From an uncultured Methanobacteriaceae archaeon (GTDB taxonomy: Archaea; Methanobacteriota; Methanobacteria; Methanobacteriales; Methanobacteriaceae), in assembly GCA_963771995.1 (NCBI GenBank), contig CAVYVR010000006.1, positions 570,344 to 602,343 on the forward strand: 32,000 nucleotides of DNA. Reading direction: 5' to 3'. Below are positions 7,565 through 19,507 of this stretch, in pieces. Under the pieces are notes generated by a model. It made no database searches and had not been told where the DNA came from. It saw only the letters and a list, made by a program, of their open reading frames with translations. The position numbers and the translations under genes are program-made. The number at the start of each line of letters is the position of its first letter. Position 1 is the first letter of the stretch.

Positions 7565-8008
7565 ATGAAGATACTTTTTATAGGGGCACGTTTATTTGAG
7601 GATGTAGCACTCTACACGAAAAAAAATTCGATTACAAGCATTATTACAGAGTCTAATTCAGAATCTCCCAACTTGAAACTCGCTGATTCACATTACATTG
7701 TTTCAAGGGGAATGGATGAACCAATGAAAATTGCCATTCAAGAGAATGTTGATGGTGTTGTACCATTAATAGGAATTGACGGGCCACTGATCGAAGTAGC
7801 AATTATGAAAGAGAAACTCAAAGAAGACCATGGAATTCCAGTTGTATCATCTGGAGTTTTTACCGCATCCATATGTGTTGATAAATGTAAAACCAAGGAA
7901 TTTTTTGTTAAAAATAAAATTAACACTCCTAAATTCTTTAAAATTTCTAAAAACCATTATAAAAGTGTATTACCTATAATCGAATCAAAACCATCCCATG
8001 GTTCTTAA
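7565..8008 (+). CDS. CarB-like ATP-grasp enzyme, N-terminal fragment (pre-ATP-grasp domain); the frame is interrupted
   Basis: MKILFIGARL...VDGVVPLIGIDGPLIEVAIMKEKL..GIPVVSSG..ASICVDKCKTKEFF resembles the CarB N-subdomain. The fragment stops just before the expected glycine-rich ATP loop. Confidence 0.75.
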   Translation: MKILFIGARLFEDVALYTKKNSITSIITESNSESPNLKLADSHYIVSRGMDEPMKIAIQENVDGVVPLIGIDGPLIEVAIMKEKLKEDHGIPVVSSGVFTASICVDKCKTKEFFVKNKINTPKFFKISKNHYKSVLPIIESKPSHGS

Positions 8009-8702
8009 ACAGCCCCAAGGCCAAGGAGGATCTGGGATACAAATAACATCATCAATTAAAGAAGTGAGTGAATATTTCAGTAAATATGAAAATGCCGTTG
8101 CTGAAAAATTCTTAGATGGATTTGAAGTTTCCATTGAAGTCCTTAGATGGCAAGGTAAATCTGTGCCGTTAGTCCCTGTTTATAAAGGAAAAACCACAGT
8201 AGAAGGCATTCATCCACTTAAAAAGATTAAAAAAGCCCCTTTAAATATAGATGGAATTGATAATCTTAAAAATAACCAAAAAATCATGGAAATTGCAGTT
8301 GATATTGCAGATAGCATGGATCTAGAAGGAACAGCAGATATAGACATCATTTTTGACAATCAATCCAAGGAACTTAATGTAATTGAAGTCAATGCAAGAC
8401 CCAGCGGTACAAGATACATCACAAATGCCGCATCAGATATTAATATCATGCAAGAACTAATTGAAATGGCATCTGGTAATTGGAACCCTTTAAAACTTAA
8501 AAATAGAATTAAGAATTATTCCTCAATTGAAATACCAGTAGGTAATTATCTAACCAATAAAAACAACTATAAATTCCGCGAATTTTTAAAAAATAATTCA
8601 TGGATAATTCACGGCCCTAAAAACTATGAACGTATAACAATTCGCGGCGAAACTATTGCAGATGCTGTTAAAACAGCTGAAAACCTAAAAATTTTGGATT
8701 AA
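7998..8702 (+). CDS. CarB-like ATP-grasp enzyme, C-terminal fragment (ATP-binding domains); it overlaps the N-terminal fragment by 11 nt in the +1 frame
   Basis: MVLKQPQGQGGSGIQI is the ATP-grasp glycine-rich loop. ADIDIIFDNQSKELNVIEVNARPSGTRY can be compared with CarB in this window ([27 protein letters not shown]). Confidence 0.8.
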   Translation: MVLKQPQGQGGSGIQITSSIKEVSEYFSKYENAVAEKFLDGFEVSIEVLRWQGKSVPLVPVYKGKTTVEGIHPLKKIKKAPLNIDGIDNLKNNQKIMEIAVDIADSMDLEGTADIDIIFDNQSKELNVIEVNARPSGTRYITNAASDINIMQELIEMASGNWNPLKLKNRIKNYSSIEIPVGNYLTNKNNYKFREFLKNNSWIIHGPKNYERITIRGETIADAVKTAENLKILD

Positions 8703-8865: not shown

Positions 8866-9939
8866 TTGAGCAATATTCAGTTAGAAATTTTCATATTCTT
8901 ACTCGCGTTCATATCAACAGCACTTTTTACCCTTTTTATAAAAAAGGCTTTGAAATATGCAGATATTAAAGATAAACCAATAGTAACAGAACACAGCCAT
9001 AAAGCAGGCACACCTACAATGGGAGGATTAGCAATACTTATGGGAGTTCTTCTTATTGCATGTGTTTACTATACAGATAAAAATCTTATTCTAACCGTCA
9101 TGATTATGATGACCGCTGGAATCGTGGGATTGATGGACGATCTCATAGGACTTAAAACCAAGGAAATTCAGAAGGTAATAAAAAACATCAGCCCAAAACC
9201 TGTTGAAATTGGAAGGTTGAAACTAAAGACTGGCGAAAATGCCAGGGTAACTACTCCTAAAGCCAAAAAAGACCTTGAATATCTCCTGAAAAATAATCTA
9301 GTCGAGATAACCGGTGAAGCACCCATAAAAAGTGAGATTAAAGAAAATGAGAAAATTTTGGCCCAGATCCTAGTTTCTTTGTTTCTTGTAGCTTCAGGAG
9401 CTGTTGGTGCTTCTGTACTAGGATTTAACATTGGACTGTTAACAATTCCCCTAGTGATATGCGGGATAGTTGGGGCTATTAATTCTGTAAATCTTATAGA
9501 TGGAATGGATGGCCTTGCTGCAGGAATAATAGCTATAGCCTCGATTGCATCGGCTATATTTGCAATATCCACTGGAAACACCAATGGAGCAATACCTTTT
9601 ATTGTAATTGCTGGAGCATGTGTAGGATTTCTTGTATATAACAAGTATCCTGCAAGTATTTTTATGGGCGATACAGGTGCATTTGCCCTTGGAGCGGGTT
9701 ACATAACAGCAGCATTTTTAGGGGATGTAATCTACTTTGCAGTAATAGCAATAGCAGTTCCAATAATATCAGTTGTTGTTAGCCTTCTTCATAGAGCACA
9801 TTTCATAAAACTTCCTGTAGAACCCCTCCATCACACTCTTAACTACAAAGGATTGTCCGAGAAGAAAATTGTCTTAATTTATTGGGCGGCGACTTTAATA
9901 GTTTGTTTGGGTGCATTGTATGGATACCACGCACTTTAA
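8866..9939 (+). CDS. MraY/WecA-family (GT4) polyprenyl-phosphate phospho-sugar transferase, MraY-like, with a long hydrophilic insert
   Basis: The product is a multi-pass membrane protein. Motifs seen are PTMGGLAILMG, GLMDDLIGLK, NLIDGMDGLAAG, NKYPASIFMGDTGAFALGA and HH near the C-terminus. An insert of roughly 70 aa (KEIQKVIKNISPKP...IKENEKI) follows the DD motif. RBS AAGGTGG precedes the TTG start. Confidence 0.9.
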   Translation: MSNIQLEIFIFLLAFISTALFTLFIKKALKYADIKDKPIVTEHSHKAGTPTMGGLAILMGVLLIACVYYTDKNLILTVMIMMTAGIVGLMDDLIGLKTKEIQKVIKNISPKPVEIGRLKLKTGENARVTTPKAKKDLEYLLKNNLVEITGEAPIKSEIKENEKILAQILVSLFLVASGAVGASVLGFNIGLLTIPLVICGIVGAINSVNLIDGMDGLAAGIIAIASIASAIFAISTGNTNGAIPFIVIAGACVGFLVYNKYPASIFMGDTGAFALGAGYITAAFLGDVIYFAVIAIAVPIISVVVSLLHRAHFIKLPVEPLHHTLNYKGLSEKKIVLIYWAATLIVCLGALYGYHAL

Positions 9940-9971
9940 TCATAAAATCAATCAACCTAAGGAAAAATAAA

Positions 9972-11471
9972 ATGAATAATATCACAACATCTTACTTGGC
10001 CAAAAAGGTGAATGGAAAGTTAATAGGGGATCGAAAACCTATAAACGGGATTTTCACCTTTTTAAACAGTGCACAATCTGGTGATGTGGTAGTGAGGCAT
10101 TGGATTGATGAACATGGAGTGGAAATAGCTGCCCAAAAAAATGTATCGTGCATTGTAACTCAAAATCCAAGAGGAAAAACCGAAGAAATTGCCCATAAAC
10201 TCGGAATACCCCTTATAATTACGTCTAAAATTGAATTTGCTAATGCATTCGCAATAAAATGGGCAATTAAAAATTTTGCCAAAGACTCCCTTCGTGTAGT
10301 TGTAACTGGAACTAATGGAAAATCTACCACAGCCCATATGATATATACAATCCTAAAAAATTCAGGTTATATTACTTACACAAATACAGATGCAAAATCT
10401 GAATTTAACACCCTGATCGACCCAATTGTTGCAAAACAGATCGCAGAATTCGAAACTCTTAACAATAAAAAAATTCAGGCCATGGTTGTTGAGGTTTCAG
10501 AGGTTCAAGGATGGTTAGATAAACTAATGAAAGATCATGCACAAATCATGACTTCAGCAGTAGATCCAGATGTTTTGGTTATCACCAACATAAGCCTCGA
10601 TCACATAGGTCTTGTAAATTCTATTGAAGAAACATTTGATGAGATCTATGGATCATTAAAAGCTATTTCCAATAAATCCTCAAAGGATGGTTCAGCTGAA
10701 GGGATCATCAAAAATGACAAGTATGCTGTTTTAAATTCAGATGACCCTCTTTTATGGAAAATGGGACAACTTGTAGAAAATCATGAAATTAAACTTTTAT
10801 TCTATGGAAGCAACCCTGAGGGATCTATCCCTCCAAATATAACCATGAGATCTGATGGAATTTATATGGGCAATGATCTATTTTTAAAAACAGAGAAACT
10901 TCCATTTCAAAGCAAACACTTCCTACAAAACACCATGGCAGCGATAAGTGCATGTATAGCTTTGGATATCAATATAGAATCTATTAAAACGTCAATTTCA
11001 TCATATAAACCCCTTAATAGAAGATTCACAGTTCTTGGCACTGAACCCACTGTTATTGATGATTTTGCCCACAACCCTGAGGGTATAATAGCTACGATAC
11101 AAAGCACGGCGAAAATGTGTAATGGGGTTTTGTATGTTGTATTTGCAATTAGAGGTTCCAGAGGAGAATCAATTAATATTTTAAACACAGAAGCAGTTAT
11201 AAAAGGCCTTGAAGGAATTAATCATTGTCTAATTATTACAAGCAGTGAAGAAGTAGTCGATGATGCAAACACTGTAACAGCACATGAAAAAGATATGGTG
11301 ATCGAAACTCTAGAAAAGTATGGTGAAAAATATATATTTCAAAAAAAATTATATCCTTCACTTGAGCACAGTGTAAAGTCAGCAAAAGCAAATGATACCA
11401 TCTTACTCATTGGTGCTCAGGGAATGGACCCTGCAAGTGAAATATTGAAAAAAATTTATATGGATATATAA
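9972..11471 (+). CDS. Mur ligase family protein, MurE/MurF-like (pseudomurein-type peptide ligase candidate)
   Basis: The N-domain GKLIGD...GDVVVRHWIDEHGVEIAAQKNVSCIVTQ is MurF-like. The central domain shows VVVTGTNGKSTTAHMIY, VVEVSEVQG, VITNISLDHIG and NSDDP. The C-domain shows PLNRRFTVLG and VIDDFAHNPEG. ATG 9972 (MNNITTSY) was chosen over the track start 9882, which overlaps the upstream gene. Confidence 0.9.
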   Translation: MNNITTSYLAKKVNGKLIGDRKPINGIFTFLNSAQSGDVVVRHWIDEHGVEIAAQKNVSCIVTQNPRGKTEEIAHKLGIPLIITSKIEFANAFAIKWAIKNFAKDSLRVVVTGTNGKSTTAHMIYTILKNSGYITYTNTDAKSEFNTLIDPIVAKQIAEFETLNNKKIQAMVVEVSEVQGWLDKLMKDHAQIMTSAVDPDVLVITNISLDHIGLVNSIEETFDEIYGSLKAISNKSSKDGSAEGIIKNDKYAVLNSDDPLLWKMGQLVENHEIKLLFYGSNPEGSIPPNITMRSDGIYMGNDLFLKTEKLPFQSKHFLQNTMAAISACIALDINIESIKTSISSYKPLNRRFTVLGTEPTVIDDFAHNPEGIIATIQSTAKMCNGVLYVVFAIRGSRGESINILNTEAVIKGLEGINHCLIITSSEEVVDDANTVTAHEKDMVIETLEKYGEKYIFQKKLYPSLEHSVKSAKANDTILLIGAQGMDPASEILKKIYMDI

Positions 11472-14673: not shown

Positions 14674-14812
14674 AATTTTGAAATTTGTTTATATGCTTCT
14701 TATAAAGGTAATACTTTGCATACTATTATATCAATAAAGATTAAATCAAATAAGATAAGATCAAATAAATTTTATAAAGTGCATATTATCAATGCACAAA
14801 ATAGGTGAAAGA

Positions 14813-15262
14813 ATGTTCATAAAAATTAGGAGAGATACGTTAATCATCTTATTACTGGCCTTCATGCTCATTGTATCAGGGAGGGTCATGACTTACATGT
14901 CTTATGCATCATCCACCGATGTGGGTGATCAGGGCGTTCAAATATCCGGAATAATGGTAAAGGGGAATGATATAGTCCCATCAGATTCCATAAAAAGTAG
15001 TTTAGCTGATGTTGGATTTAGATCAGGAAGTTATATAGCAGGAGATACCCTTGTTACTAGTAAACGTAAGGTTCCATTGAATGAAGCAATAGACAATGCC
15101 AAACAGGCAGTCATGTTAACAACAATACCGGGTACACAGATTACACCGATTGTTGCAGCAGATGTCCAAGTAAACAAGGATACTGGAACTGTAACAGTAA
15201 ATGTTATTGAAGACTTCTCAAACATTCACATTAGTGGACAGGGAATTAATGGAACCTACTAG
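14813..15262 (+). CDS. Bitopic membrane protein of unknown function: N-terminal TM anchor plus an extracytoplasmic domain with a POTRA/FtsQ-like sequence pattern
   Basis: The anchor is MFIKIRRDTLIILLLAFMLIVSG. The domain is VQISGIMVKGNDIVPSDSIKSSLADVGFRSGSYIAGD...AIDNAKQAVMLT...VAADVQVNKDTGTVTVNVIE. GGTGA at 14804-14808 precedes ATG 14813, and ATG 14792 is an alternative start. The POTRA assignment is by eye only. Confidence 0.8.
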   Translation: MFIKIRRDTLIILLLAFMLIVSGRVMTYMSYASSTDVGDQGVQISGIMVKGNDIVPSDSIKSSLADVGFRSGSYIAGDTLVTSKRKVPLNEAIDNAKQAVMLTTIPGTQITPIVAADVQVNKDTGTVTVNVIEDFSNIHISGQGINGTY

Positions 15263-15272
15263 GGGTTAGATC

Positions 15273-16535
15273 ATGGTAAAATTAAATATTATGAAGTTAG
15301 CAATACTTGTAATAACTATTACAATGGTTGTTGGCACATCAGCAGCTACAATGAATGTTGTGGTTATAACAGACCCCACAGGACAGGATCCGAATGGGGC
15401 CGCAGCCGGAAGTCAATCATGGGCGGCAAATATGTTTCAGTCAACATTTATACTGTCTAAAACTAATCACTTTGCTGTACTATCTGGTGGTGAGGGTAAT
15501 GCTACGCCTAGACTTGCTGCAATTGTTTCTGCCTTAAACGTTATGGAAAGCGGAGGCACTCCAGCCCAAGCAGCAACATTAGCTAATCAATTTTCCGGTA
15601 TACGAGTCATGGTAGGATCAGCCACACAAGGGGCGGCTGTTGGCGGTTATTTCGATGCCTATGTTGTAATAGTATCACCTAACGGTACAATAACAATAAC
15701 CCCCTACAAAAGTGGTTTGGCTGTACTTCCAGCGGGCGATAAAGGAGCAATAATACATCTTTTAAATACTCCAGGTAACCCTCAGTACGGTTCTGCCGAT
15801 GCTGTGCGGCTGCAAACAGCAGAACTGATGGGACAAATGATAAGAGACGGTTATCCTGCCACAGATGTTTTAGGGGCAGCGTTTAAGAATGTTGCTGTAA
15901 ATGCTGGTGAAAAACACGGTGGAGGGGCTGTAAATCTTGTTTCAGAAATAACGACTGGGGACATGTTCACCCCAACAGCACTTAACACAACAGGATTTCC
16001 AATGGATTCACCGTACAGTAAAACAAGTCCAAATGGATGGAGTATTGCATATCCTGAAGCTGATAACTACCAAACAAGTCCTATTGATGGTACCAACCTT
16101 ACAACCGTTTATGCATATGATGCATTAAAAAATGCTATTACGGTAACAGGAAATTCCACAGCAGTATCCGTCTATGGAACAGATGCTCCGGGAGTTTCAG
16201 AAACTACCCAAGAAATAGTGGATGCTTCTGTGGCAAAACATGGATTCAGCAATACACTAATTGCTTCTGATATCAACAAAGCAATAGCCAGCGGACTAAT
16301 AATTGGTGTTAACGACGTGGAAGCTAAAGATATAAACCTAAACCCCACTCAAAATGCAGTTGGAGTATATTTTACTCCACTACCGAACGACAGAACTGCT
16401 CCAGCATGGAATATACCAATAAGCTCATCAATTTTGAACATATTAGGGAACATGCAGACAGCGATAGGCTTGATATTGATTATTTTAGTCCTCTTTAGAA
16501 GTACTTTAATATCCTCTTTCATAAGGAAAAAATAA
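15273..16535 (+). CDS. Exported protein of unknown function: signal peptide, Ala/Gly/Thr-rich ectodomain of about 370 aa, C-terminal TM anchor with a basic tail
   Basis: The signal-like N-terminus is MVKLNIMKLAILVITITMVVGTSAA|TMNVVV. The C-terminus is AIGLILIILVLFRSTLISSFIRKK. Five N-x-S/T sequons are present (NAT, NGT, NTT, NLT, NST). A GGGG RBS lies 6 nt before the ATG, 10 nt after the upstream stop. The gene is visibly richer in GCN/GGN codons than its neighbours. Confidence 0.88.
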   Translation: MVKLNIMKLAILVITITMVVGTSAATMNVVVITDPTGQDPNGAAAGSQSWAANMFQSTFILSKTNHFAVLSGGEGNATPRLAAIVSALNVMESGGTPAQAATLANQFSGIRVMVGSATQGAAVGGYFDAYVVIVSPNGTITITPYKSGLAVLPAGDKGAIIHLLNTPGNPQYGSADAVRLQTAELMGQMIRDGYPATDVLGAAFKNVAVNAGEKHGGGAVNLVSEITTGDMFTPTALNTTGFPMDSPYSKTSPNGWSIAYPEADNYQTSPIDGTNLTTVYAYDALKNAITVTGNSTAVSVYGTDAPGVSETTQEIVDASVAKHGFSNTLIASDINKAIASGLIIGVNDVEAKDINLNPTQNAVGVYFTPLPNDRTAPAWNIPISSSILNILGNMQTAIGLILIILVLFRSTLISSFIRKK

Positions 16536-16668
16536 TTCATAAATATTTTGGAGCTAAAAATTATCTTAAAAAAAAGGATGAGATGAAATCATCTTAATTC
16601 CTTAAAATTTATTTTATAACTTATTTTATAGATTTATTCTATTTAATAACTAGAAGGAGTAAAAAAAT

Positions 16669-17022
16669 ATGGCCTTAATTTTAATACGTGCTGAGGATCA
16701 GGGAAAACTTTTAAACACCCTTGCAGACATCGAAAGACATGCTGGACTGAAAGTAGCCGGGAAACCTAGAATAATAGACCCCAAAAAAGCTGATGAAATT
16801 GCAGGAAAAATATTAAAACAACAATTACGTTCAAAATCAGATATAGCAGTCCTTGTTCGCGTTGAAGATGACACAACTAAAAGTATTGTTCAGATAAGAA
16901 AAATTCATCCACCAGCACATGTAATAGTGATCAGCGAGGAGTATGGTGAATTCAAAAAATTAGAAGAAGCATTTCATGGATTAACATATCTGAAAGGATA
17001 TTACTCCCATAAAAACAAGTAA
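16669..17022 (+). CDS. Small cytoplasmic hypothetical protein (117 aa)
   Basis: A clean ORF with AAGGAG at 16654-16659 before the ATG. TATA-like repeats lie upstream (TTATTTTATA twice, 16609-16631). I recognise no motif in the product. Confidence 0.7.
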   Translation: MALILIRAEDQGKLLNTLADIERHAGLKVAGKPRIIDPKKADEIAGKILKQQLRSKSDIAVLVRVEDDTTKSIVQIRKIHPPAHVIVISEEYGEFKKLEEAFHGLTYLKGYYSHKNK

Positions 17023-17082
17023 TTCAAGAAAATTTTAGTTCTTGAATATATAATAAAATATCATAATAATTGGAATAAATAA

Positions 17083-17102
17083 TGATTGAATGATTTCAAT
17101 CA
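17083..17102. terminator. 8-bp stem / 4-nt loop hairpin (TGATTGAA-TGAT-TTCAATCA) between convergent genes
   Basis: The arms are exact reverse complements. The hairpin lies between the stop of 16669..17022 (+) and the stop of the MBF1 gene (-). Its role as a terminator is inferred from position only. Confidence 0.3.
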
Positions 17103-17116
17103 AATATTATATTCAA

Positions 17117-17593
17117 TTAATTCTTTTTAATTCGAGCAATATCTCCAATCGTAGCTCCTCTAATTTTTGAATGGCCTATTTCATCTGCACTTACATCATC
17201 ATTTTTTTCAACTAACACAACATTCATCAATTTCTCGATCTTCCTAGCTAACTTCAGATCAGGAACCATTTTACCAGACTCAATTCGAGTAACAACAGAC
17301 GCCTTTTCATAGATCTTCTCTCCTAGTTCTTCACGAGACCATCCCTTCTTCTCCCTCGCTTCTCTAACAATGTCTTTAACATTTTCAACGACTTCTTCGG
17401 CAGGTTCTCTAGGCCTTTGAATTCTTCGAGTAGCACCTTTACTTCGAGATACTCCGGGCCGTTTAGGTTTAGGAGGTTCTCTTTGAATTTTACCAAATTT
17501 TGAGCATTCTTTGCACGTTATCATGATTGAACCATCTAGTTTAATTTTCAATGGTTCTTCTACTAGTTTTTTTCCACATATCTCGCATCTCAT
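17117..17593 (-). CDS. Archaeal multiprotein-bridging factor 1 (aMBF1): N-terminal zinc ribbon plus C-terminal XRE-type HTH
   Basis: The ribbon is MRCEICGKK...ITCKECSKFG (CxxC...CxxC). The HTH is REKKGWSREELGEKIYEKASVVTRIESGKMVPDLKLARKIEKLMNV. Confidence 0.88.
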   Translation of the reverse strand: MRCEICGKKLVEEPLKIKLDGSIMITCKECSKFGKIQREPPKPKRPGVSRSKGATRRIQRPREPAEEVVENVKDIVREAREKKGWSREELGEKIYEKASVVTRIESGKMVPDLKLARKIEKLMNVVLVEKNDDVSADEIGHSKIRGATIGDIARIKKN

Positions 17594-18274
17594 GGCTATC
17601 CCTTTACACTTGTAATCATTATATAATCTATATCCCTATATTATAAATATTAATAAATCTTTTTAGAGGTTACTTAGCGCCTTTTTTTTCTCACTTTTTA
17701 GATATAAGTTCATAATATTTTATATATGTTTATTTTGACTATGGATACCATTTTTTAGATCTAATTTTTTGAGGCTATTCCCATCTGACCTCTATCCAAT
17801 ATGGAAATAATTACAGATTCATTGTTCACGTTATGATAGGAATGTCACGTTAGGAGGTTTGAGTATAATTGACTGGAAAAAGATGAGATTATTTTTTATA
17901 ATTTGGGTTACTTTGAGTAACATTATTTTTAACTGTTTATAGTTATCTAGGTCTTTTTTTATTCTATAAATAATATTCTCCTATAGTTTTCAATTGATTT
18001 TTGAATATTTATTCATTACAATTATAAAGTTCCCTTGTTGCATCATTCAGATCATTTTTTTCAAACCAATAGTTATGTATATCTCTTTGACTGATTTCAT
18101 ATCTTATCCCAGAACTTATATTTTTTTAATTTAAATATCTATCTAATGTGAGAGTAAGTTGAAAAGTTCATCTCCACGAAACTTTAAATATTATTAAGGA
18201 CAATAAATTCAGTAAATAATATTAAGTCTTAGAGTATTATTTTTTTTTATAAAAGTTAGGAGTGAGCGAGGATC

Positions 18275-19507
18275 ATGGAAAACATGTCCCCAAATGTAGT
18301 AAAAAAGATTGAAGACCTCAAAACGGAGATAAAAATCCTAAAAGAGGATAACACTAAAACCAAACGTAACCTAATGTGGAAGGTTAGGAAGCTCGAGAAG
18401 GATAAAGTCCTGATTGAAAATGAAAAAATGAGGCTGGATAGAGAAGTCAAATCTCTTAGAGGAGAAATTGAAAGATTCAGATCGCCCCCACTAGTAATTG
18501 CTACGGTAACTGAAGTTTTAGACGATGGTAGGGTAGTTGTAAAAAGCAGCACAGGCCCTAATTTTGTAATTGGATATTCACGATTCTTAGATGAAAAGTC
18601 ACTTGAACCCGGTGTTCGTGTGGCACTTAACCAGCAGACATTCAGTATAGTGCATGTTCTGCCATCAGAAAAAGATCCTATTGTAACAGGTATGGAAGTC
18701 GAGGAAAAACCTGACGTTGCTTATGAACAGATAGGAGGATTAGAAGATCAAGTAGTAGAGATAAAGGAAACTGTTGAACTACCACTTAAAAAACCAGAAC
18801 TATTTGTCAACATTGGTATAGAACCTCCTAAGGGAGTCCTATTATACGGACCGCCTGGAACAGGGAAAACCCTGCTTGCAAAAGCAGTAGCACATGAAAC
18901 CAATGCAACATTTATTAAGATTGTGGCTTCTGAATTCGTTAAAAAGTACATTGGAGAAGGTGCTAGACTTGTTAGAGGTGTTTTCGAACTTGCAAAGGAG
19001 AAATCCCCAAGCATAATCTTCATTGACGAAATCGATGCAATAGCTGCTAAAAGACTTAAAAGTTCCACCAGTGGAGACAGGGAAGTTCAGAGAACCCTTA
19101 TGCAGTTACTAGCTGAAATGGATGGTTTCGAAGGTAGGGGAGATGTTGGAATTGTGGCTGCTACTAACAGACCTGACATTCTTGACCCTGCACTCTTAAG
19201 ACCTGGACGTTTTGATAGATTTATCGAGGTACCAATTCCAAATGAAGACGGCAGAAATGAAATATTGAAGATCCACACTAAGAAAATGACATTGGATGAA
19301 GATGTGGATATTAGACATATTGCATCACTTTCAGAAGGTGCTTCGGGTGCCGACCTTAAAGCTATTTGTACAGAATCGGGTATGTTTGCAATAAGGGAAG
19401 AACGGTCAACAGTTACAATGAACGATTTCATGGACGCTGTAGATAAGATTGTTGGTATGGAACATGATGAAGAAATGAGAAAAGAAGCAGGAGTGATGTT
19501 TGGATAA
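18275..19507 (+). CDS. pan: Proteasome-activating nucleotidase (PAN), AAA+ ATPase
   Basis: An N-terminal coiled coil ([15 protein letters not shown]...[12 protein letters not shown]) is followed by an OB region. Motifs are Walker [16 protein letters not shown], Walker [10 protein letters not shown], and [20 protein letters not shown]. Confidence 0.95.

Follow-up and report, generated by a model that had tools for sequence, protein, structure and literature searches.

Wall cross-linking is carried out by D,D-transpeptidases of the penicillin-binding protein (PBP) type, which are Ser-based, and by L,D-transpeptidases of the YkuD type, which are Cys-based; both are membrane-tethered extracellular enzymes, are encoded together with mraY and mur genes, and work by way of an acyl-enzyme, the terminal residue being lost. 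Gamma-glutamyltranspeptidase (GGT), a periplasmic or extracellular N-terminal nucleophile (Ntn) enzyme that uses Thr, transfers its acyl-enzyme to an amine and so handles gamma-glutamyl isopeptide chemistry. The archaea that build pseudomurein have no PBP or YkuD homologues (PMC10117817, PMC2812497); no enzyme is known for the extracellular assembly of this polymer, and a proposal involving transglutaminases is untested (PMC2812497, PMC10117817, PMC11915815). Here we present the Mfer764 family gene found at positions 15273..16535 (+ strand) of a 32,000-nucleotide stretch from an uncultured Methanobacteriaceae archaeon (assembly GCA_963771995.1, contig CAVYVR010000006.1, positions 570,344 to 602,343; the whole stretch is referred to below as the window), together with the predicted fold, the distribution and the genomic setting of its product.

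The names Mfer763 and Mfer764 were given by Subedi et al. 2021, Mfer_0764 being the gene of Methanothermus fervidus. By accession match to Lupo et al. 2025, Mfer764 corresponds to OG0001472 and Mfer763 to OG0001162 (WP_088335890.1 is P0396). Mfer764 has been described as a universal core gene in a biosynthetic operon with MraY and the ligases (PMC10117817) and is single-copy, with one sequence per organism (Table S2 of PMC11915815). Earlier publications already cover the gene family, the operon in which it lies and its confinement to pseudomurein-containing archaea, and the first-pass annotation of the window, which put the protein forward as a candidate for the missing extracellular enzyme, was unaware that the family had been named and highlighted as an unknown of the pseudomurein cluster (Subedi 2021; NF053642). 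Public records label the protein 'hypothetical', the orthologue of Methanopyrus kandleri is annotated 'Zn-ribbon domain containing', and no paper assigning a fold or function to the family was found in the literature searched. Relative to these sources, the Ntn-hydrolase-like fold, the invariant Thr at the signal-peptidase +1 position, the exclusion of Cys chemistry and the POTRA-like partner appear to be new.

Family membership, invariant threonine and predicted fold

The open reading frame (ORF) begins with ATG and encodes a product of 420 aa, as first annotated. The protein matches NCBIfam NF053642 ('Mfer764 family') at 642.9 bits (E 1.7e-193, cutoff 560), with residues 25-416 aligned to positions 1-393 of the 393-position model, which begins at A25/T26. 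By this profile match it is a full-length equivalog member of the family, with no difference found. Database searches yielded 628 family matches among 5.8 billion protein clusters and 55 among 1.84 billion representatives at 50% identity; of these 55, all except one appear to be family members or fragments. The remaining hit, P0172 (1100 aa, E 5e-4), is a bacterial surface protein whose repeated beta-hairpin domain matches residues 108-162; it was treated as spurious. The named sources of the matches were Methanobacterium, Methanobacteriaceae, Methanobrevibacter, Methanosphaera and Methanopyrus only. The distribution was drawn from these protein searches and the literature (a single-protein contig scan of genomes returned only six close relatives); by sequence, the family occurs in Methanobacteriales and Methanopyrales only, the pseudomurein-containing orders, and hence tracks pseudomurein, in agreement with PMC10117817 and PMC11915815.

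The N-terminal segment KLAILVITITMVVGTSAA, recorded from the start as signal-like, has 19-residue Kyte-Doolittle windows above 1.6 over residues 1-32, and the AlphaFold model shows a helix at residues 2-19 followed by a low-confidence linker. Residues 1-25 (15273..15347, +) read as a signal peptide with K3 and K8 in the n-region, LAILVITITMVV as the h-region and GTSAA as the c-region. Across the family the presequence is mostly 23-27 residues long, position -1 is Ala in 233/236 members and position -3 is V, A or S in 234/236. This pattern points to a canonical signal-peptidase I site of the AxA type, with cleavage predicted at A25|T26. Many database gene calls of the family begin at an internal Met and so lose the signal peptide's hydrophobic core, among them the 403-aa NCBI/ENA entry for the window protein (P0001), 402-407-aa Methanobrevibacter entries, and P0190, P0205 and P0273.

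The predicted first residue of the mature chain, Thr26 (codon 15348..15350, +), which the first-pass annotation had suspected of being an N-terminal nucleophile, is Thr in every family member that has an N-terminus (236/236). It stands directly ahead of strand 27-32, and the first ten residues of the domain model have a pLDDT of 96; a Thr that starts the mature chain and opens a strand is thus present in silico, in both sequence and model. Orthologue identity from Methanopyrus to Methanobacterium is 40-75%, and some 60 residues are invariant (58 in a 97-sequence alignment). Those invariant within the domain in this alignment are D34, P35, N41, G42, S47, S49, N53, M54, F55, G72, G73, R80, R111, H162, N165, G168, N169, P170, R179, R191, D192, E213, G216-218 and N221. 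Among them S47, S49, G72-G73, R111, H162, N165 and E213 lie at element ends that are expected to face Thr26, a placement taken from strand and helix directions. The window protein contains no Cys at all, and neither do 41/219 full-length orthologues; the absence of Cys from the window protein excludes, on sequence grounds, a Cys-based mechanism of the transglutaminase/Pei endoisopeptidase or the YkuD L,D-transpeptidase type.

Residues 26-236 (15348..15980, +), which hold most of the invariant residues, make up the predicted Ntn-hydrolase-like alpha-beta-beta-alpha domain. The full-length AlphaFold model has a pLDDT of 82.6, with values above 90 across most of residues 30-230, and the model of residues 26-236 has a pLDDT of 90.7 and a pTM of 0.90. 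From Thr26 onwards the secondary structure runs through four strands, two helices, six strands, two helices and one strand, which we take to be the proteasome/HslV pattern. In the Foldseek comparison of the domain model with the PDB, the top eight matches were all to circularly permuted human taspase-1 (E 5e-6 to 7e-5, probability 1.0, TMq 0.52-0.59, rmsd 6-7 Å), a construct whose first residue is the nucleophile Thr234 (bioRxiv 10.1101/2020.11.26.400622). The DUF1028 protein SPO2555 (2imh) was matched over nearly its whole chain (E ~7e-3, probability 0.99-1.0), with a TM of 0.48-0.52 and an rmsd of 4.2-5.3 Å for the domain model and a target TM of 0.52-0.55 and an rmsd of 4.1-4.7 Å for the full-length model. 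PP2C-type proteins (3pu9, RsbX, SpoIIE, SiaA, tPphA) were matched with E values from 6e-4 and probabilities of at most 0.99 (TM 0.36-0.46, rmsd 6.5-10 Å). Anbu, 20S proteasome subunits and choloylglycine hydrolase were also among the matches, as was HslV with the full-length model. By Foldseek score and the order of elements, residues 26-236 are confidently predicted to form a four-layer alpha-beta-beta-alpha sandwich of the Ntn-hydrolase-like kind. The fold guess, weak when first made, has thus held up, the best PDB matches being Ntn hydrolases, and the modelled sandwich does not belong to the repeat, adhesin or S-layer folds. A gene annotated 'NTN-hydrolase' is present in MSTV1-like viruses of Methanobrevibacter smithii (PMC11375127); a Foldseek search of viral structures (BFVD) with the Mfer764 model gave nothing meaningful, and no related viral protein was found in it.

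Among the described Ntn families, DUF1028 (PF06267; SPO2555, 2imh), an uncharacterised single-chain family of this fold, has the same size as the Mfer764 domain (~210 residues). In each of the two a Thr heads the processed chain, in Mfer764 by prediction, without cleavage into alpha and beta subunits, and the N-termini are alike by eye (T-x-x-I/V-hydrophobic...DP.TG...GAAA). In the DUF1028 sequences collected, Thr follows the initiator Met without an export signal, so that removal of Met would expose it, whereas in Mfer764 it would be exposed by loss of the signal peptide; unlike DUF1028, Mfer764 also has an extra ectodomain and a transmembrane anchor. The relationship between the two is at the level of fold only. 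Taspase-1 and the type 2 asparaginases (T2) gave the best Foldseek matches and have a Thr nucleophile that starts a central strand, but only the engineered circular permutant (beta-then-alpha, Thr234 first) aligns with Mfer764. Natural T2 enzymes are self-cleaving alpha-then-beta precursors, soluble and intracellular, and have no sequence similarity to Mfer764, which has no Pfam Asparaginase_2 match and falls outside peptidase family T2. The T1 enzymes (proteasome beta, HslV, Anbu) are single-chain alpha-beta-beta-alpha proteins in which Thr1 opens strand 1 and the elements follow in the same order as in Mfer764. Their matches were weaker (probability 0.5-0.94), their Lys33/Asp17 motif is not recognisable in Mfer764, which is predicted to be extracellular, and no evidence was seen that Mfer764 forms rings as T1 enzymes do.

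The enzymes with which the present text opened are functional analogues only. GGT is self-cleaving and has two subunits; Mfer764 has no Pfam sequence match to it, and GGT was absent from the top 50 fold matches. The PBP and YkuD transpeptidases have folds unrelated to that of Mfer764 and a Ser or Cys nucleophile, and neither a Pfam or NCBIfam match to a PBP transpeptidase nor a PBP among the fold matches was obtained.

Partner gene and proposed function

Directly upstream of the Mfer764 gene lies a gene of the Mfer763 family (14792..15262, +; NF053641, 228.5 bits against a cutoff of 170), whose product combines a hydrophobic segment at the N-terminus with a single POTRA-like domain. Its conserved start is probably the ATG at 14813 and not 14792, because orthologues begin at MFIKIRRD. 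A profile of eight Mfer763 orthologues matched BamA POTRA domains in the PDB (6j09_A at E 2.6e-4, also 2v9h); there was no Pfam POTRA match. A membrane segment followed by one POTRA domain is the architecture of FtsQ/DivIB, and in bacterial dcw clusters the order of genes is murC-(ddl)-ftsQ. Mfer763 would share that architecture, and by analogy its place right after pMurC would parallel that order.

In the window the genes of the cluster follow each other as split archaeal ATP-grasp, MraY_archaea, pMurE, pMurD1, pMurC, Mfer763 and Mfer764. Because only 10 nt separate the stop codon of the Mfer763 gene, which ends at 15262, from the ATG of Mfer764, co-transcription and possibly translational coupling of the two are suggested. 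A Shine-Dalgarno-like GGGGT (15262..15266, +) shares the last base of the upstream stop codon, and its GGGG (15262-15265) is located 8-11 nt ahead of the ATG; both this ribosome-binding site and the 10-nt spacing, as first annotated, are present in the sequence. Mfer763 lies directly 5' of Mfer764 in 7/8 distinct related loci, the exception being a solo copy (L005), and the gap between them measures 9-19 nt in every paired locus examined. The two genes are adjacent in Methanopyrus kandleri, Methanosphaera, Methanobacterium and one metagenomic lineage. In M. kandleri a Mur ligase comes first, followed by ATP-grasp, MraY, another Mur ligase, Mfer763, Mfer764 and a 369-aa protein. In the metagenomic lineage the pair is separated from the MraY/pMurE cluster and still together, and this lineage keeps, at L009 9762-12554, the downstream neighbours found in the window (DUF356, aMBF1 and PAN), from which it follows that the 3' boundary of the pair is older there than the link to the ligases.

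In the proposed mechanism, Mfer764 would be exported by the Sec pathway, and signal peptidase would cut after S-A-A25, in place of the usual Ntn autoproteolysis, freeing Thr26 as the N-terminus. Since the presequence resembles a Sec signal peptide, activation is likely to fall to signal peptidase, and an invariant Thr at its +1 position implies this route rather than autoproteolysis; autoproteolysis at A25|T26 would give the same product. The second, small ectodomain and the conserved transmembrane helix would keep the enzyme on the outer side of the membrane, beside Mfer763. There Thr26 would attack an amide bond of a pseudomurein stem peptide to give an acyl-enzyme ester, which in the favoured version would be resolved by the amine of a neighbouring stem; this would amount to transpeptidation, with release of the terminal residue and formation of a cross-link. 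We infer cleavage at A25|T26, the catalytic use of Thr26, the substrate, transfer as opposed to hydrolysis, and physical contact with Mfer763. A synthetic role is favoured because Mfer764 is a universal core gene of a biosynthetic operon, Thr-Ntn transferases exist (PMC11947121) and the protein has no Cys. The case for a Thr-Ntn-type enzyme that acts on pseudomurein peptides is evenly balanced. Its narrower version, a cross-linking transpeptidase, is tentative, and the complete proposal of a Thr-Ntn pseudomurein transpeptidase that is activated by signal peptidase and works with an FtsQ-like Mfer763 is put forward more cautiously still.

Several points weigh against this proposal. Most Ntn enzymes are hydrolases and not transferases. 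PP2C phosphatases, which have the same four-layer architecture, come close behind the best fold matches (3pu9 at E 6e-4 and probability 0.99; RsbX at TM 0.44-0.46), and the clustering of invariant residues around Thr26 would follow from strand and helix directions, not from coordinates. At the sequence level no homology to any Ntn family was found by Pfam, PDB profile or, for DUF1028, hhalign, and a profile search of PDB sequences with Mfer764 gave 0 matches at E <= 10. Comparison of the Mfer764 alignment with DUF1028 (the 2imh sequence and 117 real DUF1028 proteins) gave an hhalign probability of 0.4-0.65% (E 0.09-0.17), and Smith-Waterman scores set against shuffles were marginal (p = 0.014-0.15). 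The published SignalP 5 results for OG0001472 report Sec/SPI in 2/4 orthologues (PMC11915815, Table S1); the 'OTHER' calls in the remaining two probably arose because gene calls that start at an internal Met remove the hydrophobic core. The literature, moreover, prefers exported transglutaminase-like proteins for cross-linking (PMC2812497, PMC11915815).

The N-terminal resemblance to DUF1028 noticed in the first-pass annotation ('T-MNVVVITDPTG...GAAAGSQS') is visible, but it is not significant by hhalign or shuffling. A permissive hhalign run aligned T to T, DP to DP, GAAAG to GAAATG, GNP to GNM and GEKxGG to GgDfRG in collinear order, likewise without significance. Sequence homology to DUF1028 was rejected as evidence, there being no Pfam PF06267 match, an hhalign probability below 1% and marginal shuffles. 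More broadly, Mfer764 has no Pfam domain at E <= 1, nor do its individual members at E <= 10, barring weak zinc-ribbon matches. The original proposal of a cross-linking or maturation enzyme is thus only partly supported: the fold, the invariant Thr and the pseudomurein-confined distribution speak for it, but the catalytic role and the cross-linking are inferred, the PP2C alternative is real, the DUF1028 likeness lacks sequence support and the N-glycosylation sequons discussed below are uninformative.

The same fold and the same Thr nucleophile could also serve hydrolysis only. Resolution of the ester by water would make Mfer764 a trimming or lytic amidase, namely a pseudomurein carboxypeptidase, endopeptidase, autolysin or precursor-maturing amidase that trims terminal residues or opens the wall for insertion and cell separation and makes no cross-links. 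This is possible but doubtful. It draws on the same structural and conservation evidence as the transpeptidase, all characterised closest fold matches (taspase, HslV, proteasome, choloylglycine hydrolase) hydrolyse, and a hydrolase confined to one place would be served just as well by a membrane tether. The genomic setting weighs against it. In bacterial dcw clusters the synthase FtsI, and not a hydrolase, holds the corresponding position, so that by analogy the position of Mfer764 would belong to a synthase. Being a universal core gene in an operon with MraY and ligases (PMC10117817) and single-copy (PMC11915815) likewise speaks against a purely hydrolytic role, and the organisms already carry many Pei/transglutaminase-like candidate hydrolases (PMC10117817). 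The PP2C matches suggest a different chemistry altogether, that of a divergent, extracellular, metal-dependent phosphoesterase acting, for example, on an undecaprenyl-pyrophosphate-linked precursor or on the released carrier lipid. The domain-only model ranks 3pu9 (E 6e-4, probability 0.99), RsbX 3w40, SpoIIE, SiaA and tPphA directly after taspase, the PP2C/SpoIIE/RsbX domains are similar in size to that of Mfer764, and the invariant polar and acidic residues D34, D39, N41, D192, E213 and N221 could in principle bind metal. Yet the TM of 0.36-0.46 stays below the 0.5 that serves as a rule of thumb for the same fold, at an rmsd of 6.5-10 Å, and DUF1028 and taspase match better; there is no Pfam PP2C or SpoIIE match at E <= 10. 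The Asp metal-ligand motifs are not recognisable, their positions being held by S71-G-G, H162/N165 and E213 in a mapping that was inferred from secondary-structure order and not superposed. PP2C enzymes are, to our knowledge, cytoplasmic, and an invariant Thr exactly at the signal-peptidase +1 position would be left unexplained; we consider a phosphoesterase improbable.

Two further explanations do without catalysis. As a scaffold, Mfer764 would join the POTRA-like Mfer763 in organising or regulating membrane steps of wall assembly in a divisome-like manner, its Ntn-like fold being an inactive relic as in proteasome alpha subunits. The strict coupling to a POTRA-like, FtsQ-like partner fits this, and the very high conservation of the transmembrane helix suggests protein contacts within the membrane. 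However, some 60 invariant residues, many of them polar or loop Gly, are kept across the divergence between Methanopyrus and Methanobacteriales (~40% identity), and together with an absolutely conserved Thr26 they are more typical of an active site, which leaves the scaffold unlikely. A glycosylated surface structural protein of the adhesin or S-layer-like kind, with no role in wall chemistry, would account for the signal peptide, the C-terminal anchor, the Ala/Gly/Thr-rich ectodomain and the several sequons. It is largely refuted by the fold and is far less probable than any of the above: the model is a compact enzyme-like sandwich, there are no repeats, the sequons are at chance level, and a single-copy, highly conserved core gene in an operon is unlike the fast-evolving adhesin-like proteins.

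C-terminal region and neighbouring genes

The C-terminal ectodomain and membrane-proximal linker span residues 237-384 (15981..16424, +), modelled with a pLDDT of 53-90 in 10-residue blocks (65-90 up to residue 380). This region gave no convincing PDB match in Foldseek with the full-length model. K250 and W256 are invariant across orthologues. Residues 247-280 (16011..16112, +) form a degenerate zinc-ribbon-like knuckle in which the four Cys of many orthologues are replaced by S, N, S and D. The CxxC...CxxC knuckle is present in 82/219 full-length orthologues, including those of Methanopyrus and many of Methanobrevibacter and Methanobacterium, and the Cys-containing members give weak Pfam zinc-ribbon matches. 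Loss of the Cys4 site here, and the Cys-free orthologues counted above, indicate that the metal site of Mfer764 is dispensable. An extracellular Cys4 site that is open to loss is unusual.

The ectodomain as a whole is rich in Ala (12.7%), Gly (10.3%) and Thr (9.5%), as had been described. It carries five N-x-S/T sequons, at N76, N137, N238, N275 and N294. The first-pass annotation had listed five N-glycosylation sequons, and all are present, but their number carries no signal: shuffles of the ectodomain gave 4.45 +/- 1.9 sequons, with at least five in 48% of them, and an enrichment was rejected because five is the chance expectation. N238-T-T (15984-15992) is conserved in 93/97 orthologues, and the other four sequons are not; it could be an N-glycosylation site or a structural motif at the junction of the two domains.

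Residues 385-417 (16425..16523, +) form the C-terminal transmembrane anchor, delimited by hydropathy (hydrophobic helix ~386-417, then RKK), an AlphaFold helix at 385-418 and conservation, all in line with the helix and RKK tail first annotated; published TMHMM results for OG0001472 also have one transmembrane segment (PMC11915815). The cytoplasmic RKK tail and the stop codon occupy 16524..16535 (+), the C-terminus reads ...PLPNDRTAPAWNIPISSSILNILGNMQTAIGLILIILVLFRSTLISSFIRKK, and orthologues also end in basic residues. The anchor helix is unusually conserved (GNxQTAIGLILxxLVLFRSTLIxSF), with R409 invariant, a hint of intramembrane contacts. The helix is not preceded by an LPXTG or PGF motif, and no NCBIfam CTERM model matched; a substrate of sortase or archaeosortase was rejected on the lack of an LPXTG or PGF-CTERM type motif.

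The gene is richer in GC than its surroundings, as first reported (0.414 versus 0.348 for the window), but the excess is confined to codon positions 1 (0.499) and 2 (0.466). As GC at position 3 (0.278) equals that of the neighbouring genes, a foreign origin was ruled out and amino-acid composition is the cause. Downstream, in the 133-nt spacer before the DUF356 gene, a centroid RNA fold places a hairpin followed by an A/T-rich run at 16574..16603 (+), which may mark the end of the operon; the z-score of the whole spacer is only -1.36. The genes for DUF356, aMBF1 (HTH_3) and the PAN AAA ATPase follow the Mfer763-Mfer764 pair at 16669-19507.

At the other end of the cluster, the pseudomurein ATP-grasp gene at 7565-8702 (NF053643, Ddl_archaea, 367 model positions) does not run in a single frame: one ORF, 7565-8008, covers model positions 1-133, and a second in another frame, 7998-8702, covers positions 142-367. 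The junction has no long homopolymer, and a frameshift, a pseudogene or an error of assembly could lie behind the split. The mechanical call of the pMurE ORF (9882-11471) begins at a TTG, which gives it an overlap of 58 nt with mraY. Because the NCBIfam pMurE model aligns only from residue 39, translation probably starts in fact at the Met at residue 30 (MNNITTSY).

Two observations concern related loci. The metagenome-assembled genome of Methanobacterium sp. UBA410 has a second Mfer764 copy (contig DAHH01000004.1; L005 7989-9152), which keeps SSA|T-TNMIIITDP. It has no upstream Mfer763 and no pMur genes among its listed neighbour ORFs, the canonical copy lies in L004, and the second copy is either a solo paralogue or bin contamination. 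In M. kandleri (L007/L008 9253-10362) the 369-aa gene, which has no Pfam match, starts 1 nt after Mfer764 (stop 9251, start 9253). It probably corresponds to the polytopic membrane protein OG0000796 (PMC11915815) and is absent at the equivalent position in the window.

Significance for pseudomurein assembly

A universal, wall-lineage-specific, surface-exposed Ntn-like protein with an invariant Thr makes the open question of how pseudomurein is assembled outside the cell experimentally approachable. Well-developed classes of covalent inhibitors (boronates, epoxyketones, vinyl sulfones) exist for Thr-nucleophile enzymes. If the proposed function is true, the enzyme would therefore be an attractive and specific target against rumen and gut methanogens, since it would lie outside the membrane and is absent from bacteria and animals. 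It would also represent a third independent chemistry for wall cross-linking, after the Ser-based PBPs and the Cys-based L,D-transpeptidases, and the archaeal wall pathway would then combine bacterial-type cytoplasmic ligases with an unrelated extracellular solution.

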